NCBI RefSeq assembly: GCF_001677475.2
Contig: NZ_CP015229.1
DNA length: 64,000 nucleotides
Reading direction: 5' to 3' (one strand)
Origin: Escherichia coli
GTDB taxonomy: Bacteria > Pseudomonadota > Gammaproteobacteria > Enterobacterales > Enterobacteriaceae
The position numbers were made by a program, and so were the translations under genes. Shown piece after piece: positions 2,919-64,000 of this stretch. Under the pieces are notes generated by a model. It made no database searches and was not told the origin of the DNA. It saw only the letters and a program-made list of their open reading frames with translations. The first letter of the stretch is position 1. Each line of letters starts with the position of its first letter.

Positions 2919-3656
2919 TTAAACTTTTCCGGCGGCTTCGCGCTCTGCGACTTCTTTATCGAGCTCGGCGATTTTTTGTTCCATTATCGAACGACAATGG
3001 GCAGCCAGCTCACGAACCTGATCTTTGCCATACTGACTGACGTCAATTGGCGGCAGCATTTCGACAATCACCAGACCGTTGTGCAGTCGATTAAGATTAA
3101 TCTTATTCGAAGTTGTAGAGACACACACGGGAATAATCGGGACGCCCGCCGCAATTGCCGCGTGAAATGCCCCGGTCTTGAACGGTAGCAGGCCGCGACC
3201 ACGGCTGCGGGTACCTTCCGGGAACATCCAGATGGAAATACGGCGTTTTTTGAAGTGATTCACTACTTCCGCAATAGTGCCGTGAGCTTTAGTGCGATTA
3301 TTTCTGTCGATCAATAAGTTGCCGGTTAACCAGTACAACTGCCCGAAGAAGGGGATCCACAGCAAGCTCTTTTTACCTACCGTCACCGTCGGCGGTTGCA
3401 CAATGTTCGATGCTGTCACCATGTCATAGTTGTTCTGGTGGTTAGCGATATAGATAGCATTGCCGTAGCTTTCAGCGTCTGCAGGTTTGCGGCACTCAAC
3501 TTTCAGGCCGAACAGCGGCGCAAGACGGCCAAACATATGCCCAAAGGTGGCCACATGTTTCGGGTTACGCGGGCTGAAAAGGCAGTAAATGGAGCCGAAT
3601 ACACAGACTAAGATGCTGTAAATCACGGTAATAATAAGACGAAAGATATATAGCAT
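2919..3656 (-). CDS. plsC: 1-acyl-sn-glycerol-3-phosphate acyltransferase
   Basis: 245 aa with the acyltransferase HX4D motif (NHQNNYD). Synteny. Confidence 0.95.
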   Translation of the reverse strand: MLYIFRLIITVIYSILVCVFGSIYCLFSPRNPKHVATFGHMFGRLAPLFGLKVECRKPADAESYGNAIYIANHQNNYDMVTASNIVQPPTVTVGKKSLLWIPFFGQLYWLTGNLLIDRNNRTKAHGTIAEVVNHFKKRRISIWMFPEGTRSRGRGLLPFKTGAFHAAIAAGVPIIPVCVSTTSNKINLNRLHNGLVIVEMLPPIDVSQYGKDQVRELAAHCRSIMEQKIAELDKEVAEREAAGKV

Positions 3657-12165: not shown

Positions 12166-13053
12166 TTAGCCATTCTTTCTTCCCGTTTTCAAACCCCGAT
12201 GGAAATCGTTAATTCGCTTAATGGTTTTAACCGCACGCTGCGGCATCGCGGAAGCCACCGACCAGACAATCATTTCCAGGCACAACAATACCGTACCATG
12301 TAGTGGCGTTTTCCCCTTTTCATCCCCGCGCGGAACATGAATCACGATACTGGCGTCTTTGCTAAAACGTGAATCCAGCGCGTTTGTCAGCAAAATAACA
12401 GGGATCCCCAGCCGCCTCGCCTCACGAAGCGTTGTCAGCCCTTCCCGGTGCGCAGATTTTTGCGCCATCATGATCAGAACATCGCCACGTTGAAGCGCGA
12501 TCAGTTGCTCGGCAAGGCCAATACCCGTACGGTTTAGTGCCGTGGCAGGCAAACCTATGCGGTTGAATAGTCGTGCGGTATAGTCCGCCAGAATACCCGA
12601 AGCGCCAATGCCAAAAATTGCGACTTGCCGTGCCTGCACCAACAACGCTACCGCTTGCGCAAGCGCGTGGCGGTTTTCAGGCTCTGACAGGACATTACAA
12701 GTATACAAATGCCCTTCAAGAACAAAGTCGATTGCGGTGTTAACATCGCTCGTCAAGTTACTCACCGTCGTAGACATCTTTTCGCTGGAACTAAGGGCTG
12801 GACCAAGCCACTGTTCCAGAGTGCGTCTCAGATCACGCAGCCCGGCAAACCCCAGAGCCTGTATAGCCCTGATAACTGTGGCATCGGAAGTGTTCAACGT
12901 GGCCGCAATTTCCATCGCCGTTTGCTCGAGTACCACTTCACGATGCTCATTAATGTAGCTTGCGACAGCTCTTAACCCAGGCGTTAACTGACTCGCGCGA
13001 GTGCGAAAACGCTCACCATAAATATCAACCCGCGTTTTGTCTTTCTGGATCAT
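12166..13053 (-). CDS. fitR: RpiR/MurR-family regulator (N-terminal HTH_6 plus C-terminal SIS sugar-phosphate-binding domain)
   Basis: 295 aa. Its ATG overlaps the stop of the upstream binding-protein gene (ATGA at 13053-13050). The gene name comes from my recollection of the fit locus. Confidence 0.8.
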   Translation of the reverse strand: MIQKDKTRVDIYGERFRTRASQLTPGLRAVASYINEHREVVLEQTAMEIAATLNTSDATVIRAIQALGFAGLRDLRRTLEQWLGPALSSSEKMSTTVSNLTSDVNTAIDFVLEGHLYTCNVLSEPENRHALAQAVALLVQARQVAIFGIGASGILADYTARLFNRIGLPATALNRTGIGLAEQLIALQRGDVLIMMAQKSAHREGLTTLREARRLGIPVILLTNALDSRFSKDASIVIHVPRGDEKGKTPLHGTVLLCLEMIVWSVASAMPQRAVKTIKRINDFHRGLKTGRKNG

Positions 13054-51924: not shown

Positions 51925-53766
<1,842 letters not shown>

Positions 53767-54475: not shown

Positions 54476-54551
54476 GGCCCCTTAGCTCAGTGGTTAGAGC
54501 AGGCGACTCATAATCGCTTGGTCGCTGGTTCAAGTCCAGCAGGGGCCACCA
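54476..54551 (+). tRNA. ileX: tRNA-Ile2 (anticodon CAU, lysidine-modified)
   Basis: 76 nt, ggcccct...aggggcc acceptor stem, anticodon loop ctCATaa, T-arm ggttcaagtcc, encoded CCA. The position after mug matches ileX. Confidence 0.92.
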
Positions 54552-55652: not shown

Positions 55653-56055
55653 TTACTTGTCTTTATTCGGCTGCAACTTATCCGGCACATTTCCGGTAGT
55701 TTCCATCAGGTAATCAGCCAGTATCTGTGGGAGGTTGTCGGCAACTCTGGCACTGGCATTACAGGCTTTAACCACTTCCCTTTTAAGCCCATCCAGCATA
55801 GCGGGGGTAATGTGTGGGAAGCTCCTTTGCATAGTAAGCGGGAGGCTGTCCATGATTGATGAAATCTGACTCGCCAGTTTTGAAAGCGCGTACATGCAAA
55901 ACTCTGTATCAATCACGTCACCGCGATCGCGCTCGTTTTTAAGTTCCTGCGCCTCCGCCTGTGCTGTCAGTAATCTGATCCTGACTCGTAAGTATGAGAC
56001 GACAATAACTCAGTCCGCCTGGCGCCGATTATTCTGGCCGGTTTTGTAACCTGAG
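55653..56055 (-). pseudogene. Nu1-type terminase small subunit, C-terminal part (separated from its N-terminal part by the IS; extra frameshift near 55983)
   Basis: Minus-strand translation gives ...RIRLLTAQAEAQELKNERDRGDVIDTEFCMYALSKLASQISSIMDSLPLTMQRSFPHITPAMLDGLKREVVKACNASA.... This aligns by hand with lambda Nu1 ...HRLTRAQADAQELKNARDSAEVVETAFCTFVLSRIAGEIASILDGLPLSVQRRFPELENRHVDFLKRDIIKAMNKAA (recalled from memory). Confidence 0.8.
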
Positions 56056-56085
56056 TGTCATTTACATGATCCAACAGGAAATGGC

Positions 56086-57514
56086 GTGACGCTCAATACT
56101 TCTCAGGTCAGTTACTATATGACTCAGCGTAAGAAAGGTATAACTCAGCATATCTCGGCCATGAAGGCTGGTATCTCAGTCCGTTCTGGTCGTCGGATCG
56201 AAAAAGGAGAGTGGGCAAAAAACAGTGTTCGGCACTGGCGCACACGCAAAGATCCTCTGGAAGCTGTGTGGGACAGCATGCTTGTTCCTCTGTTGAAAGA
56301 GAGGCCGGCTCTGACACCAACAACTCTACTGGAGATGCTACAGGATAAATATCCCGGCCAGTACCCCAACAGCCTTCGAAGAACAATGCAACGGCGGGTT
56401 CGCGAATGGAAACTACAGTATGGTACAGAGCAGGAGGTCATGTTCCGCCAGCAACATCAGCCCGGCCTGCGAGGCCTGTCGGACTTTACTGAACTGAAAG
56501 GTGTAGTTGTCACCATCGCCGGTAAGTTGTTGGCGCATAAGTTGTATCACTTCCGTCTGGAATGGAGCCACTGGAGCTGGATGCGGGTTGTTCTGGGTGG
56601 TGAGAGCTTCTCTGCTCTGGCTGAAGGCCTGCAGGAAGCCCTCGGACAACTGGGCGGAGTGCCGGTAGAACATAAAACGGACAGCCTGAGGGCAGCATGG
56701 AAACAACAGGGCGAAGATGGACGCCGCGAGCTGACTGAGCGTTATGCTACTCTCTGTCAGCACTACGGAATGCAGGGCGTACACAATAATGCCGGTCGGG
56801 GCCACGAAAATGGCTCGGTTGAAAGTGCCCACGGACATCTGAAAAGGCGTATCTGTCAGGCGCTGATACTGCGGGGCAGTAACGACTTCAGCACCATAGA
56901 AGAATATCAGGCCTTCATCACTCAGCAGGTTATGCGGCACAACCGTAACAATCAGGATCTGGTCAAGGAAGAACGTCTTCATCTGAAACCGCTGCCGCTT
57001 CGTCGCAGTGCTGACTATGATGAGCTGACTGTGAGGGTTAGTCGCAGCAGTACCATCAATGTGAAGCACGTCGTCTACAGCGTACCTTCCCGGCTTGTAG
57101 GTCAACTGTTACGGGTCAGGTTATGGGACGATCGTCTGAGCTGTTACGTTGGCAGCAGCGAGGTCATGAGCTGCCCTCGCGTCAGACCAGAAAAAGGGAA
57201 GACGCGGGCCCGTCGTATCGACTTCCGACATGTGATCGACAGTCTGGCAAAAAAGCCCGGTGCGTTCTGCCATGCAACGCTGAGAAATGACATCCTGCCG
57301 GACGATGAATGGCGGAGGCTGTGGCGTCGCTTATGTAATCATCTGGAGCCCGATATGGCAGGAAGGCTGATGGTACATGCCGGGAAACGTGGATCTGCAC
57401 CGGCTGATGCGCTTCCTGGGTATAAAAGAAAAGGCGTTGCCGGTAGTCAATGTGATACAGCATAACCTGAGCAGTTATGAGCAACTACTGCGTGGCAAGG
57501 GAGGTTCGCAGTGA
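56086..57514 (+). pseudogene. istA: IS21-family transposase IstA with an apparent frame disruption near the 3' end
   Basis: The track ORF 56086-57465 (459 aa, HTH plus DDE region) ends in ...HAGKRGSAPADALPGYKRKGVAGSQCDTA. The +1 frame from 57371 reads WYMPGNVDLHRLMRFLGIKEKALPVVNVIQHNLSSYEQLLRGKGGSQ*, and its TGA overlaps the istB GTG (GTGA at 57511-57514). That overlap is the canonical istA/istB junction. Confidence 0.65.
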
Positions 57515-58266
57515 GCAATATCCATCACCTTGAACATAGCCTGCGTAAACTACGCCTGACACGAGTTGGAGCTGAATGGCACGCTCTGGAAAAACGAGCG
57601 CTGGCAGAAGGCTGGACACCATCGCGCTATCTTCTGACGCTATGCAATGAAGAACTCCTGTGGCGCGAGAGTGAAAAACTGCGTCGTTATAAAAAGGAGG
57701 CCCGGTTGCCAGTTGCCAAAACGCTGAGCGAATACGACTTCAGTCAGGTGCCGGAACTGAATGGAGCTCAGTTCCGGCAACTCTGTGAAACGACAGACTG
57801 GGTTGATGCAGGAGAAAACGTTCTGCTGTTCGGAGCCAGCGGGTTGGGGAAAAGCCATCTGGCGGCAGCGATCGTGGATGGCGTAGTAGGTCAGGGCTAC
57901 CGGGCCCGGTTCTACAGCGCAGGAGAGCTGTTGCAGGAACTACGTAAAGCCAGAGCTCAGTTGAAACTGAATGAGCTGCTACTGAAACTGGATCGCTACC
58001 GGGTGATAGTGGTGGATGATCTTGGCTATGTCAAACGCGATAGTGCCGAAACGGGTGTGCTGTTCGAGTTAATAGCGCATCGCTATGAACGTGGGAGCCT
58101 GGTGATAACCAGTAACCATCCGTTCAGCATGTGGGGCAGCATCTTCGTGGATGAGACTATGGCGGTGGCTGCGGCAGACAGGCTGATCCATCACGGATAT
58201 ATGTTCGAACTGAAAGGGGAAAGCTACAGGAAAAAGACAGCGAAGGCAGTAACAAGCGCGACTTGA
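57511..58266 (+). CDS. istB: IS21-family ATP-binding helper IstB
   Basis: 251 aa, Walker A GASGLGKSH, Walker B VIVVDDLG. A GGGAGG Shine-Dalgarno lies upstream of the GTG. Confidence 0.92.
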   Translation: MSNIHHLEHSLRKLRLTRVGAEWHALEKRALAEGWTPSRYLLTLCNEELLWRESEKLRRYKKEARLPVAKTLSEYDFSQVPELNGAQFRQLCETTDWVDAGENVLLFGASGLGKSHLAAAIVDGVVGQGYRARFYSAGELLQELRKARAQLKLNELLLKLDRYRVIVVDDLGYVKRDSAETGVLFELIAHRYERGSLVITSNHPFSMWGSIFVDETMAVAAADRLIHHGYMFELKGESYRKKTAKAVTSAT

Positions 58267-58325
58267 TGTCGCCCTGAAGGGTGCGGCCAGTATAGTTGGC
58301 GCGAGTCGGCAAAACTAGTTGACGT

Positions 58326-58541
58326 CTAATATCGTAAGAGTTCATCATCATCAATCTCGCCTTTGTCGTTTGTAAGCTGGCTAATTGCATTGTTAACCCT
58401 ATTGTCTATCACGCTGGCAACATCATAAAACGCCTCACGGCCTTTACGTTCAACGGGAGTCACTCCCCACTTGTCGAATGCTGTAGCACTTACCCGGCAG
58501 CTTTGCGCCATGGTTTTTTTGTTCATCAGGTGCGATTTCAT
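58326..58541 (-). pseudogene. Nu1-type terminase small subunit, N-terminal winged-HTH part (truncated at the IS junction)
   Basis: (MKSHL)MNKKTMAQSCRVSATAFDKWGVTPVERKGREAFYDVASVIDNRV... compared with lambda Nu1 MEVNKKQLADIFGASIRTIQNWQEQGMPVLRGGGKGNEVLYDSAAVIKWY (recalled). It lies about 150 nt downstream of cosN, as in lambda. The reading frame hits a TAG exactly at the IS end. Confidence 0.75.
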
Positions 58542-58559: not shown

Positions 58560-58718
58560 AAGGTTTCAGGTTGGTGTGTTGGTGTTATCTTTCCCTTTTT
58601 ATTCATGGAGATAGAGCAAACAACAAAACCACCACCACCCCCCTGAAAAAGCTCATAAATAGCGAAAAACCGCGAGGTCGCCGCCCCGTAACGGGTCCAT
58701 ATGCCGGAAAGGACCCGT
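58560..58718 (-). other. Lambda-type cos site: cosQ-like and cosN core (58651-58718) plus a divergent cosB-side region (58560-58650)
   Basis: Minus strand reads ttACGGGTCCTTTCCGGcatatggacccGTTACG GGGCGGCGACCT CGCGGtTTTTCGCTATTTATGAgc.... Capitals match the lambda right end ...ACGGGTCCTTTCCGGTGATCCGACAGGTTACG and the left end GGGCGGCGACCTCGCGGGTTTTCGCTATTTATGAAAA as I recall them. The 12-nt cohesive-end sequence lies at 58675-58686. Confidence 0.85.
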
Positions 58719-58742
58719 AAAAAAAGCCGGATTTCTCCGGCC
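58719..58742 (-). terminator. Intrinsic terminator ending the capsid operon, immediately upstream of cos
   Basis: Minus strand reads gccgga-gaaa-tccggc followed by ttttttt. A near-identical hairpin recurs at 61002-61017. Confidence 0.85.
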
Positions 58743-58747
58743 TTGTC

Positions 58748-59161
58748 TCAGATGGTTTTCAGTATGCGATCGATGTCGCCATCATCGCCCGGGTTTCTGC
58801 CAGCGTATGCCATACCAGCTGATACGGCTTTCGGGCTGTGCATGTCCATAAAGTTTTCAAAGGCTGCGGTAAGCTCTGGTGCAACCTTCTGGCGTTCCTG
58901 CTCTATGGTCATGCTAAGGATGCTTTTAGCCGTACCAACATCGATACAAGGCACGTTTGCCATTGCACGTAACAGCGGCTGATAGTCGCCAGATTCATCA
59001 AGCGCCATAATCGCATCAGAGCGCGGCTTGTCCTTCTCTTCCAGGCTGTTAAGTTGATATACGGCCTCGTAGGTTGATAAACCTCTGTCAGCCATTGCCC
59101 GCGCTTCGGCCTTAAATTTACTCGCCAGCGGTAGCGTCATGATGCTTTCATTCGTTGCCAT
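58748..59161 (-). CDS. Hypothetical 137-aa protein, last gene of the capsid block
   Basis: The ORF has a GAGGGA Shine-Dalgarno 12 nt after the gpD-like stop. I recognise no family. It is acidic with helical character. Confidence 0.6.
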   Translation of the reverse strand: MATNESIMTLPLASKFKAEARAMADRGLSTYEAVYQLNSLEEKDKPRSDAIMALDESGDYQPLLRAMANVPCIDVGTAKSILSMTIEQERQKVAPELTAAFENFMDMHSPKAVSAGMAYAGRNPGDDGDIDRILKTI

Positions 59162-59173
59162 CGTTCCCTCTGC

Positions 59174-59509
59174 TTATCGGGCCAGTGGCTGAACGGATAC
59201 GCCAGAACCCGCAAAGGCGGCGCATTTTTTCGCATCGGTGTCGACGCTCTCAGGCCAGTTAACGGCGGCGATATTAAATATCCCCGTCTTATAGCACTGT
59301 GCTGATTTCTGCGTCGACGTGTCAACGGGGTACGAGGTCAGATAAACAGCCTTGCCAGATTCCTGACCATCCCACGGCTTAAACTCGCCATTTTCCGCCA
59401 GCATCAGCGGGGTAAATTCCTGAATAACTCCAGCATCAGCGGCAAAATGTACCAGCGTCGTGGATACCTGCTGACTGCCTGCAAATAACTCAATGTATGG
59501 AGTGTTCAT
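59174..59509 (-). CDS. Head decoration protein, lambda gpD-like
   Basis: 111 aa. Shared motifs with lambda gpD (recalled): TPLML, WDG, YK(S/T)G.F, WPE, AFAG..(I/V)S(I/V). GGGGGA Shine-Dalgarno. Confidence 0.8.
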   Translation of the reverse strand: MNTPYIELFAGSQQVSTTLVHFAADAGVIQEFTPLMLAENGEFKPWDGQESGKAVYLTSYPVDTSTQKSAQCYKTGIFNIAAVNWPESVDTDAKKCAAFAGSGVSVQPLAR

Positions 59510-59520
59510 AGAATCCCCCG

Positions 59521-60576
59521 TTAAGCAATTTTGACGGTAACAAATTTGCGAATATCTGCCGGTACCGGCTGCGGTGCGCTGTGCGTCTGCACGTACTCAA
59601 TCGCCGGATCGCCATCCTCAATCCAGTTTTTCGGGTAGTACATGTTTTGCGTTGCGCCAGTTCTTACCGCTTCCGGATCCATAATCGCACCATAGGCCAC
59701 CAGCCCTTTATTGTTAGTGTTGCCCAGGACAAGCAAATCAGGCTCAAGGAAATATTTTTCGGTGCCATCGCTGTCGGTGTATTTGCCGGAATAGACGATA
59801 AGGGCCAGATCACCCAGATAGCCTTTAAAGCTCACCACTTCGCCCAGGTTTTTACAGGCCAGCTCTGCGGCGGATTCTGAACCACGGGAAAGATCGTACA
59901 GTTCACGGAATTTTTTAAAGCTGCGTAACGTGCGCCATACCTCAGCGCCCATAATCATGACGTTGGCGGGGCAACCAGCCTGATCGGTGTATAGTTCGAT
60001 GTCATAGATTGGATCGTGTGTTTCCTTATCTGCCTCAGACCACTTTTTGCCCGATCCCTGCGTAATGATGTTTTTAGTCGGGATTTTCCAGTCGATTTCG
60101 TATCTATTTATTCCTTCGCCCTCAATGATGTTTTTTCCGGTCGTGACCGCATTCACCGCCAGCCATTCTATGCGAGCTTTAATAGCGTTTACCTGGCGGC
60201 GCATGTTGCCAGTAATCAGGCGCATACGGCGATAAGTTGGATCGTTAAGCTGTGCCGGATCTTCTCCAGCCATGCGCATGATGGTTTTTGATGGATCGAT
60301 TTCGTGTTTTGGTTTCATATAGCCAGGGCGGATAGTGCTTGTTTCGTACCCTTTATCGCGCTGAACCTGACTCCCCACCATAGGCGAACAAAAAGCCGAC
60401 ATGGTGACTTCTTCAATATCCAGGGTATCTAACATGATGTCCTGCGTGTTGAAGGTTGCCACGTTCGGGAAAAACAGCGACGTAAACAGCGGACTGAATT
60501 TAAATTCCGAAATATCCCCACGATTCAGGTACGCGAAAAGCTGGTTAGTGTTAAGTGCCGTTGCTTTGCCTGTCAT
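59521..60576 (-). CDS. Major capsid protein, lambda gpE family
   Basis: 351 aa. FKFSPLFTSLFF vs lambda FKFDPLFLRLFF; PGYMKPKHEIDP vs PGYVKPKHEVNP; DPTYRRMRLI vs DPAYRRRRII; YPKNWIEDGDPA vs YPKNWVTTGDPA (lambda recalled from memory). Confidence 0.9.
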   Translation of the reverse strand: MTGKATALNTNQLFAYLNRGDISEFKFSPLFTSLFFPNVATFNTQDIMLDTLDIEEVTMSAFCSPMVGSQVQRDKGYETSTIRPGYMKPKHEIDPSKTIMRMAGEDPAQLNDPTYRRMRLITGNMRRQVNAIKARIEWLAVNAVTTGKNIIEGEGINRYEIDWKIPTKNIITQGSGKKWSEADKETHDPIYDIELYTDQAGCPANVMIMGAEVWRTLRSFKKFRELYDLSRGSESAAELACKNLGEVVSFKGYLGDLALIVYSGKYTDSDGTEKYFLEPDLLVLGNTNNKGLVAYGAIMDPEAVRTGATQNMYYPKNWIEDGDPAIEYVQTHSAPQPVPADIRKFVTVKIA

Positions 60577-63988: not shown

Positions 63989-64000
63989 TATCGATTTTAC

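Follow-up and report, generated by a model that had tools for sequence, protein, structure and literature searches.

The window analysed here, a 64,000-nucleotide stretch of the Escherichia coli chromosome (assembly GCF_001677475.2, contig NZ_CP015229.1), contains a cos packaging site at positions 58,560–58,718, read on the minus strand. We consider it probable that this is the cos site of a ~11-kb Gram-negative phage-inducible chromosomal island (PICI) adjoining the tRNA gene ileX, within the subgroup that encodes its own small terminase subunit (TerS) and is exemplified by EcCIIHE3034, and that the island TerS would bind its own cosB and bring the large terminase subunit (TerL) of a helper phage to a shared cosN. 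The first-pass annotation of the window had seen in it a specificity switch; such a switch would not be of a new kind, as this design has already been published for the PICI family: a phage-like cosQ/cosN with a different cosB was reported and explained for the sister island EcCICFT073 (Fillol-Salom 2018 ISME J, PMC6092414; 2019 Mol Cell, PMC6739421; also Murialdo and Feiss 2022, PMC9026076). The present site is an ordinary member of an already known kind of island cos, and the current understanding of cos packaging and of PICIs is unchanged.

On its cosQ/cosN side, the site is of the lambda type, as had been proposed. Positions are numbered from bp 1 at window position 58686 on the minus strand (bp n = 58687 − n), and lambda was compared without gaps, against the joined ends of NC_001416. 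Within minus-strand 58653–58718, all 7 bases of cosQ, all 12 of the cohesive end and 21 of the 22 bp that follow it (bp 13–34) agree with lambda. The cosQ-containing TACGGGT (7/7) and the GTTACG to the left of the cohesive end also match lambda, and the exact cohesive end GGGCGGCGACCT is present as a single copy in the window. The 11-nt spacer CATATGGACCC is the sole stretch that diverges from lambda on this side; over −48 to +34 the window matches lambda at 65/82 positions and phage PhiR5_1 (PV340545) at 70/82. The sequence ACGGGTCC, overlapping cosQ (58711–58718), has a perfect inverted copy, GGACCCGT, in the spacer (58691–58698), an arrangement that is present in PhiR5_1 and not in lambda.

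To the right of TTATGA, over bp 35–144, the identity to lambda drops to 46/110, and none of the 50,697 phage records searched aligns beyond query position 90, on the cosB side. The proposal that cosB is no longer lambda-like thus holds for the overall identity but not entirely, as above-chance in-register similarity remains (z = 3.9; PhiR5_1, 47/110, z = 4.0). In the same register, phage 21, N15 and the EcCICFT073 cos are at chance level (26–34/110). In contrast, the cosB of the helper prophage on viral contig L063 matches at 67/110 positions (61%, z = 8.3), and given this strong likeness the window cosB is, judging by the alignment, a diverged relative of an N15/Monarch-type cosB and not foreign DNA. 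The L063 contig starts at the prophage's own cos, and the prophage encodes a TerS with the N15 recognition helix ISVQAFDKWGV, after which comes TerL. Its R sites are R3 GGTGGTTGTTGTT at bp 48–60, an inverted R2 ACAACAACC at bp 110–118 and R1 at bp 188–196, a layout of the type described by the Feiss laboratory as a "Monarch-like" complex cosB. Compared with L063, the island has two T>G changes at the R3 position (bp 54 and 57) and one at the R2 position. To call the site chimeric, with its cosB side replaced, was therefore too strong, since cosB is homologous in register to the N15/Monarch type and the R3, I1 and R2 positions are kept. Moreover, lambda, 21 and N15 themselves normally combine conserved cosQ, cosN and I2 with cosB sequences that diverge, so that a chimeric look is to be expected.

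The inverted G/T-rich motifs that had been noticed in cosB do exist, about 1 nt from where they were first placed, and form an imperfect inverted repeat, TTTCAGGGGGGTG / CACCAACCTGAAA, at 58648–58636 / 58576–58564. The second arm lies in the R2-position block, one of three conserved blocks (Table 1). The R3-position block lies where the phages have R3 (bp 50–65 in lambda, 48–59 in N15 and, from annotation, 50–65 in 21; PMC4669245, PMC9026076), and is gapless and conserved in all satellites examined, even in those whose TerS is just 56% identical. The I1-position block lies in the place of I1 in lambda and 21 (bp 74–86; 72–86 in the annotation of 21). The R2-position block coincides with the annotated R2 of phage 21 (107–122), and its cAAtACACCaACcTGAa is conserved though it lies outside the pattern by which satellites were selected. 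With the terS ATG already at bp 146, an R1 could not be accommodated. Six TerS-type satellites, namely the window, IHE3034, an E. coli relative 84% identical, a relative 76% identical, and two helper-embedded satellites with TerS 56–57% identical (TerS range of the set, 56–95%), align from the nick without any gap. Their conserved blocks are tGGTGGtgGT.TTGTTgTT at bp 50–68, TAtct..aTGA.T at bp 74–86 and cAAtAcAcC.AC.t at bp 105–118.

The gene that starts at bp 146 encodes a Nu1 homologue, as had been suggested, and one of full length, although in the window it is split after codon 70 by an insertion sequence (IS) of the IS21 family. The element carries istA (56086–57465) and istB (57511–58266), with the NCBIfam IS21 transposase and IstB models both above their cut-offs, and is flanked by a 7-bp target duplication, CTTACGA, at 58332–58338 and 55986–55992. 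A 99.9%-identical island in strain TUM1886 is without it. Excising the IS and one copy of the duplication in silico restores an open reading frame of 180 aa, identical over ~125 aa to WP_000835287, which aligns with lambda Nu1 over its full length (BLASTP, 36% identity, 179 aa, E = 1e-33). PHROG 57 matches both parts of the split gene, and the 3′ part scores 45 bits against the Phage_Nu1 cut-off of 30. The first-pass annotation had allowed that the site might simply be that of a known lambdoid phage with an identical Nu1; among sequenced phages, no identical or near-identical TerS was found, the best being N15 gp1 at 46%.

The segments of the restored TerS differ in their affinities. Residues 6–48 are 63% identical to N15 gp1 and 28–33% to lambda, 21 and PhiR5_1 (lambda, 33%). 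The recognition helix reads SATAF in the satellites and SVQAF in the N15 type, with AFDKWGV common to both, and T20, a Q in the N15 type, is invariant in 24 satellite TerS sequences. Residues 73–125 are 49–64% identical to phage TerS. Among satellites, the DNA-binding domain is the best-conserved segment and the extreme C-terminus the least. A TerS family profile searched against the PDB gave lambda TerS (6HN7_B) as its top hit, a weak one (E = 0.005), and a phmmer search of the PDB sequences with TerS retrieved nothing relevant. A winged helix would agree with the order of elements predicted, beta-alpha-alpha-beta-beta-alpha, in what is a poor model, with a predicted local distance difference test score (pLDDT) of 59; Foldseek with this low-confidence model found no significant match, with MerR-type regulators on top.

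In the reading that we favour, a lambda-like helper would induce the island, which would then replicate into concatemers. The 180-aa TerS would bind the island cosB via its N15-like, predicted winged-helix domain, contacting the R3-position block (bp 48–68) and the inverted R2-position block (bp 101–123), probably across a bend at bp 72–90. Its lambda-family C-terminal half would bring the helper TerL, of the gpA type, to the common cosN ~47 bp away, where TerL would nick, and cosQ would be used for termination. A helper TerS with the specificity of lambda or 21 would pass over the island cosB, and packaging would thus be diverted to the island. We infer TerS binding, TerL recruitment and discrimination between sites from the arrangement of the site and its gene, for which the phage literature offers close precedents. 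The Feiss hybrids placed specificity in the N-terminal part of TerS together with cosB, and in the viable lambda-N15hy4 the N15 DNA-binding domain joined to the lambda C-part works with lambda TerL on cosQ-lambda cosN-lambda cosB-N15 DNA, which the lambda and 21 terminases package ~10^4-fold less well (PMC4669245). For EcCICFT073 alone, helper-dependent induction, packaging and high-frequency transfer, with mobilisation through cos, have been shown (PMC6092414). Its cos sites work and take their specificity from cosB (PMC6092414, PMC6739421), and swapping cosB swaps the dependence on the island factor (PMC6739421). The earlier suggestion that the helper nicks while the island TerS selects the site fits these data and the lambda-N15hy4 precedent, except that the island TerS cannot act here, being split by the IS.

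Our survey revealed that the module is widespread. In a set of 5,426 complete E. coli genomes, 766 (~14%, including O157:H7 and strains of extraintestinal pathogenic E. coli) matched a query of cosB plus 5′ terS, and in 40 rows taken at even steps down the ranking the match lay, in all 40, at a gene annotated as terminase small subunit. A scan of IMG/VR with a DNA pattern for the first, R3-position block matched 100 contigs, of which 80 were analysed. All 72 usable viral loci have a downstream TerS with an AFDKWG[VI] helix, starting at bp 146–175 (bp 146 in 63). Across 49 distinct sequences the blocks at bp 74–86 and 106–122 are kept although they lay outside the search pattern, and CGGGTCCTTtC at cosQ is likewise kept in 49 distinct satellite cos segments. 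None of the 80 contigs has a TerL gene after terS, and 70 have a PICI-type capsid gene that ends 0.6–1 kb upstream. In four loci a TerL gene lies 10–12 kb upstream, which is the expectation for helper-embedded PICIs (PMC10111431).

The same combination of cosB and TerS helix occurs with nine cohesive-end sequences, which differ only within bp 5–12 (viral contigs L020–L099): GGGCGGCGACCT in 49 satellites, GGGCGTCAGGCG in 8, GGGCGGAAGGCG in 4, and others. Co-variation of the TerS C-terminal variant with the cohesive-end variant was considered among the 72 satellites and is not claimed, the association being loose at best. In contig L050 (IMGVR_UViG_2623620496_000002), the satellite lies ~10 kb downstream of the TerL gene of a prophage whose Nu1 and full-length cosB are those of lambda, and the cohesive ends differ, GGGCGGAAGGCG in the prophage and GGGCGGCGACCT in the satellite. 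Because this helper has lambda Nu1 and lambda cosB, its TerS is not expected to read the satellite site. The satellite of L063, on the other hand, sits in a prophage with N15-type TerS and R3/R2/R1. With its nine cohesive ends and with helpers of both lambda and N15 specificity, the module of cosB and DNA-binding domain is evidently portable. The conserved DNA-binding domain, the variable C-terminus and the nine cohesive ends would be consistent with a recognition module that is private to the satellite and coupled to parts facing the helper. Furthermore, roxA/phoQ holds a TerS-type island in O157:H7 SS17 and the Rpp-type EcCICFT073 in CFT073, which points to exchange of the packaging module among islands that are otherwise alike.

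Several observations weigh against the proposal that the island TerS selects its own cosB. The terS gene is split in the window, although it is intact in relatives. The match of the I1-position block to the consensus for integration host factor (IHF) is weak in the window copy (3 mismatches), and the AlphaFold model, built from a 24-sequence alignment (pLDDT 59), is too poor to confirm the TerS fold. The C-terminal end of TerS (residues 126–166) is just 32–51% identical to any phage TerS, which leaves the TerL partner uncertain. In their own strains, induction with mitomycin C yielded no more than ~100 transductants/ml for the TerS islands of IHE3034 and 18098, compared with 10^3–10^5 transductants/ml for EcCICFT073 (PMC6092414, Table 1). 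Finally, the R sites are only one or two bases from the N15/Monarch type, so that an N15-type helper TerS might also use this cosB.

Taken further, this last point would make the site a case of mimicry, in which an N15/Monarch-type helper TerS reads the island cosB directly and the island TerS is dispensable or merely additive. The in-register identity of 61% to the cosB of a satellite-carrying N15-type prophage, the R2 core one base and the R3 two bases off those of L063, and the AFDKWGV common to the similar recognition helices speak for such an account. However, the R3 changes fall in bp 54–59, the segment most important for N15 R3 function, scrambling of which lowers N15 packaging ~100-fold (PMC4669245), and the T20 that replaces the N15-type Q is invariant in the 24 satellite TerS. 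Moreover, all 72 satellites with island-type cosB retain their own terS, and the L050 satellite sits in a prophage of lambda specificity, where mimicry of the N15 type could not work. We therefore think direct reading by the helper TerS unlikely.

A second alternative is that the island TerS mainly forms mixed dimers with the helper TerS, poisoning helper packaging and retargeting the complex. Rpp of EcCICFT073 acts via TerS heterodimers (PMC6739421) and its gene, rppA, holds the exact position of terS; lambda-family TerS dimerise via their DNA-binding and coiled-coil regions, and residues 73–125 keep the 49–64% identity to phage TerS given above. Rpp proteins, however, are 135–153 aa long and have no TerL-binding tail (PMC9026076), whereas the island TerS is full length with a C-terminal end that aligns with the TerL-binding end of Nu1, so that a helper TerS would not be needed to reach TerL. 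RppA aligns with it over the N-terminal domain only, and the island DNA-binding domain is ~30% identical to lambda-type domains. An Rpp-like mode is consequently improbable, and direct recruitment of the helper TerL by the island TerS is the better account.

What the IS has done to the window copy must be kept apart from the function of the module. With terS split by the element, this copy has no TerS of its own to offer; the gene in its present form could yield no more than a predicted 70-residue DNA-binding stub without the TerL-binding half. In this strain, where cos is intact, packaging of the island would depend on TerS provided in trans or else be inefficient, and the island is probably crippled for self-directed transfer. 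The broken terS and the lack of portal, protease, TerL and tail genes could also be taken to mean that the site is a fossil of a defective lambdoid prophage, a cos without present function. This is very improbable. Hundreds of genomes have this compact module in intact form, at several attachment sites, the cos blocks keep a fixed spacing across diverged copies, and the sister island EcCICFT073 has been mobilised experimentally through cos (PMC6092414). The IS event is the sole decay and is specific to the window copy, the 99.9%-identical TUM1886 island being intact.

The setting likewise identifies the element as an island. At ileX, too, strains A33 and TUM1886 carry islands that are 99.8–99.9% identical to that of the window, and EcCIIHE3034 is 94.7% identical over cos and its flanks. 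The complete TUM1886 island, of ~11 kb, consists of integrase, AlpA-like regulator, Icd-like protein, DUF4222, primase, single-stranded DNA-binding protein (SSB), capsid, decoration and 137-aa proteins, cos, terS, a 93-aa gene and the tRNA; the int/AlpA end of the window island lies past base 64000 and was read from this copy. The late genes of the window follow one another as they do in EcCICFT073, EcCIIHE3034, TUM1886 and 70 viral-contig satellites. The islands of IHE3034 and 18098 were already stated to "encode TerS" in the 2018 paper that defined these PICIs (PMC6092414), and since that subgroup is catalogued the element is a PICI belonging to it, not a prophage fragment. A prophage-fragment origin was considered and rejected, given the intact modules elsewhere and the mobility of the sister island.

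If this reading is correct, the cosB and terS module would descend from the N15/Monarch packaging-specificity group of lambdoid phages, and in the course of descent R1 would have been lost, T>G changes would have arisen in the R sites and the recognition helix would have changed from SVQAF to SATAF. We tentatively suggest, as a possibility that has somewhat less than even support, that TerS-encoding enteric PICIs carry a fourth packaging specificity within the lambda family, private to satellites and additional to those of lambda, 21 and N15, which would have arisen from the N15/Monarch module through one or two T>G changes in each R site and matched helix changes (Q to T, V to A). Such a specificity would be a natural minimal example of how packaging is re-coded, and would provide a ready-made orthogonal cos/TerS pair. 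The combination of helper cutting and termination signals with a private recognition site and small terminase is the likely route of very common E. coli satellites into lambdoid capsids. In the available literature we found no description of the cosB anatomy of TerS-type islands or of its N15/Monarch ancestry; the present analysis yields candidate R sites, a probable N15/Monarch ancestry and natural satellite–helper pairs for islands of this type.

The window itself is E. coli chromosome, with rpoD (51925–53766), mug and tRNA ileX (54476–54551) preceding the island. The part of the island within the window has the compact, one-directional PICI layout, from DUF4222 through terS: on the minus strand the order is DUF4222, D5/P4-type primase-helicase, SSB, gpE-like, gpD-like and 137-aa genes, cos and terS, and no lysis, portal, protease, TerL or tail gene was found in it. 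The late genes (58748..60576, minus strand) match PHROGs 29, 49 and 1999. The 137-aa protein matches weakly the C-terminal end of head-maturation proteases, at the position of the lambda Nu3 scaffold, and its RefSeq annotation varies among genomes between "head-tail connector" and "hypothetical". The hairpin between its gene and cosQ was not listed by a scan for consensus promoters and terminators, in which the sole "terminator" called was cosN itself. In strain A33, two such islands stand in tandem at ileX (L005 1–12830), in an assembly with many genes marked frameshifted.

Table 1. Features of the island cos region and its surroundings, in window coordinates (bp numbering as in the text)
Feature	Position	Strand	Basis or remark
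gpE-like major capsid protein	59521-60576	-	Pfam Phage_cap_E, E=3e-52
gpD-like decoration protein	59174-59509	-	Pfam HDPD, E=5e-18
137-aa protein, directly upstream of cos	58748-59161	-	phrog_1999 (unknown function)
Terminator-like hairpin GGCCGGAGAAATCCGGC then T7 run, between 137-aa gene and cosQ	58719..58744	-	Inverted repeat and direct reading
cosQ heptamer GGGTCCT (bp -30 to -24)	58710..58716	-	Identical in lambda, 21, N15 and PhiR5_1; same distance to nick
cosQ-cosN spacer, 11-nt core CATATGGACCC	58687..58709	-	Unlike lambda; identical to phage PhiR5_1
cosN cohesive end GGGCGGCGACCT (bp 1-12), flanked by inferred nicks	58675..58686	-	12/12 to lambda, 21 and PhiR5_1
Spacer between cosN and R3 (I2 region), conserved, bp 13-34, CGCGGTTTTTCGCTATTTATGA	58653..58674	-	21/22 to lambda; kept in all satellites
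R3-position block, bp 48-68, GGTGGTGGTGGTTTTGTTGTT, candidate primary TerS-binding site	58619..58639	-	Nick distance as in phage R3 sites
I1-position block, bp 72-90, TCTATCTCCATGAATAAAA, possible site of IHF binding or bending	58597..58615	-	TATCt.tATGAaT kept in 49 distinct satellite cos segments
R2-position block, bp 101-123, AACACCAACACACCAACCTGAAA, inverted G/T-rich arm, candidate second TerS-binding site	58564..58586	-	Inverted repeat with bp 39-51
terS 5' part, codons 1-70 (predicted winged helix-turn-helix DNA-binding domain and linker start), ATG at bp 146	58332..58541	-	PHROG 57 terminase small subunit, E=1.2e-12
IS21-family element, 2,339 bp, splitting terS after codon 70	55993..58331	+	Comparison with intact A33 and IHE3034 islands
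terS 3' part (oligomerisation region, presumed TerL-binding C-terminus)	55653..55985	-	Pfam PF07471 Phage_Nu1, E=9.8e-12

Among known systems, EcCICFT073 is of the same island family, with the same gene order and the cos at the same position, between the 137-aa gene and the specificity gene. Its cosQ, cosN and bp 13–34 are almost the same as in the window and in lambda, and its cosB is island-specific. While EcCICFT073 has rppA (c1503) in this place, encoding a 144-aa protein without a TerL-binding tail that must pair with the helper TerS, the window island has a full-length 180-aa TerS of the Nu1 type, collinear with Nu1 to the C-terminus. The two cosB do not align (30/110, chance level), and whereas Rpp-type cosB are reported to be without repeated R sequences (PMC9026076), that of the window has an inverted pair. 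For Rpp-type islands, an R3-PICI at bp 48–65 was proposed by Murialdo and Feiss 2022 (PMC9026076). The proposed R3 core of EcCICFT073, ACCACCACC at bp 55–63, is the reverse complement of the (GGT)n run of the TerS type at bp 48–59 (L009 2559–2625, the cos upstream of rppA, compared with window 58628–58639; the remaining cosB cannot be aligned). Derivation of Rpp from a satellite TerS was considered and rejected, as the RppA N-terminal domain is lambda-like (RTxxxW...QGMP) and not of the AFDKWGV type.

EcCIIHE3034 has the same gene order from DUF4222 to terS, the same cosB blocks and a TerS 93–98% identical by segment. It is integrated between cspD and clpS and not at ileX, its terS is intact, and downstream of terS it carries a second cos, inverted and with a cosB like that of phage 21; the islands of the window and of A33 have no such second cos. 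A second inverted cos of this kind, with a helper-type cosB like that of phage 21/PhiR5_1, lies downstream of terS in IHE3034 (L006 ~12361–12426) and of rppA in CFT073 (L009 ~3270–3330), the latter being probably the "cos2" of EcCICFT073.

With the N15/Monarch group, the window island shares the AFDKWGV-type DNA-binding domain, a candidate R3 of GGT/GTT triplets at bp 48–60 and equal positions of the candidate I1 and R2. It differs in the T>G changes of the R sites, in SATAF instead of SVQAF, and in having no R1 and no remote rR2; unlike N15, it has no TerL gene after terS, and its cohesive end is that of lambda, 10/12 identical to that of N15. With lambda it shares an essentially identical cosQ, cohesive end and bp 13–34, the geometry of the candidate R3-I1-R2 blocks and a Nu1-homologous TerS with a similar C-terminal half, whereas the R recognition bases are unrelated, R1 is absent, terS starts at bp 146 instead of 191, and the DNA-binding domain is 33% identical. 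The Staphylococcus aureus pathogenicity islands SaPI1 and SaPIbov1 offer a further likeness, in that a satellite small terminase together with the helper TerL redirects packaging to the satellite's own site. The SaPIs, however, use headful (pac) packaging and a TerS of an unrelated family, while the window island is of the cos type, with a cutting site common to satellite and helper.

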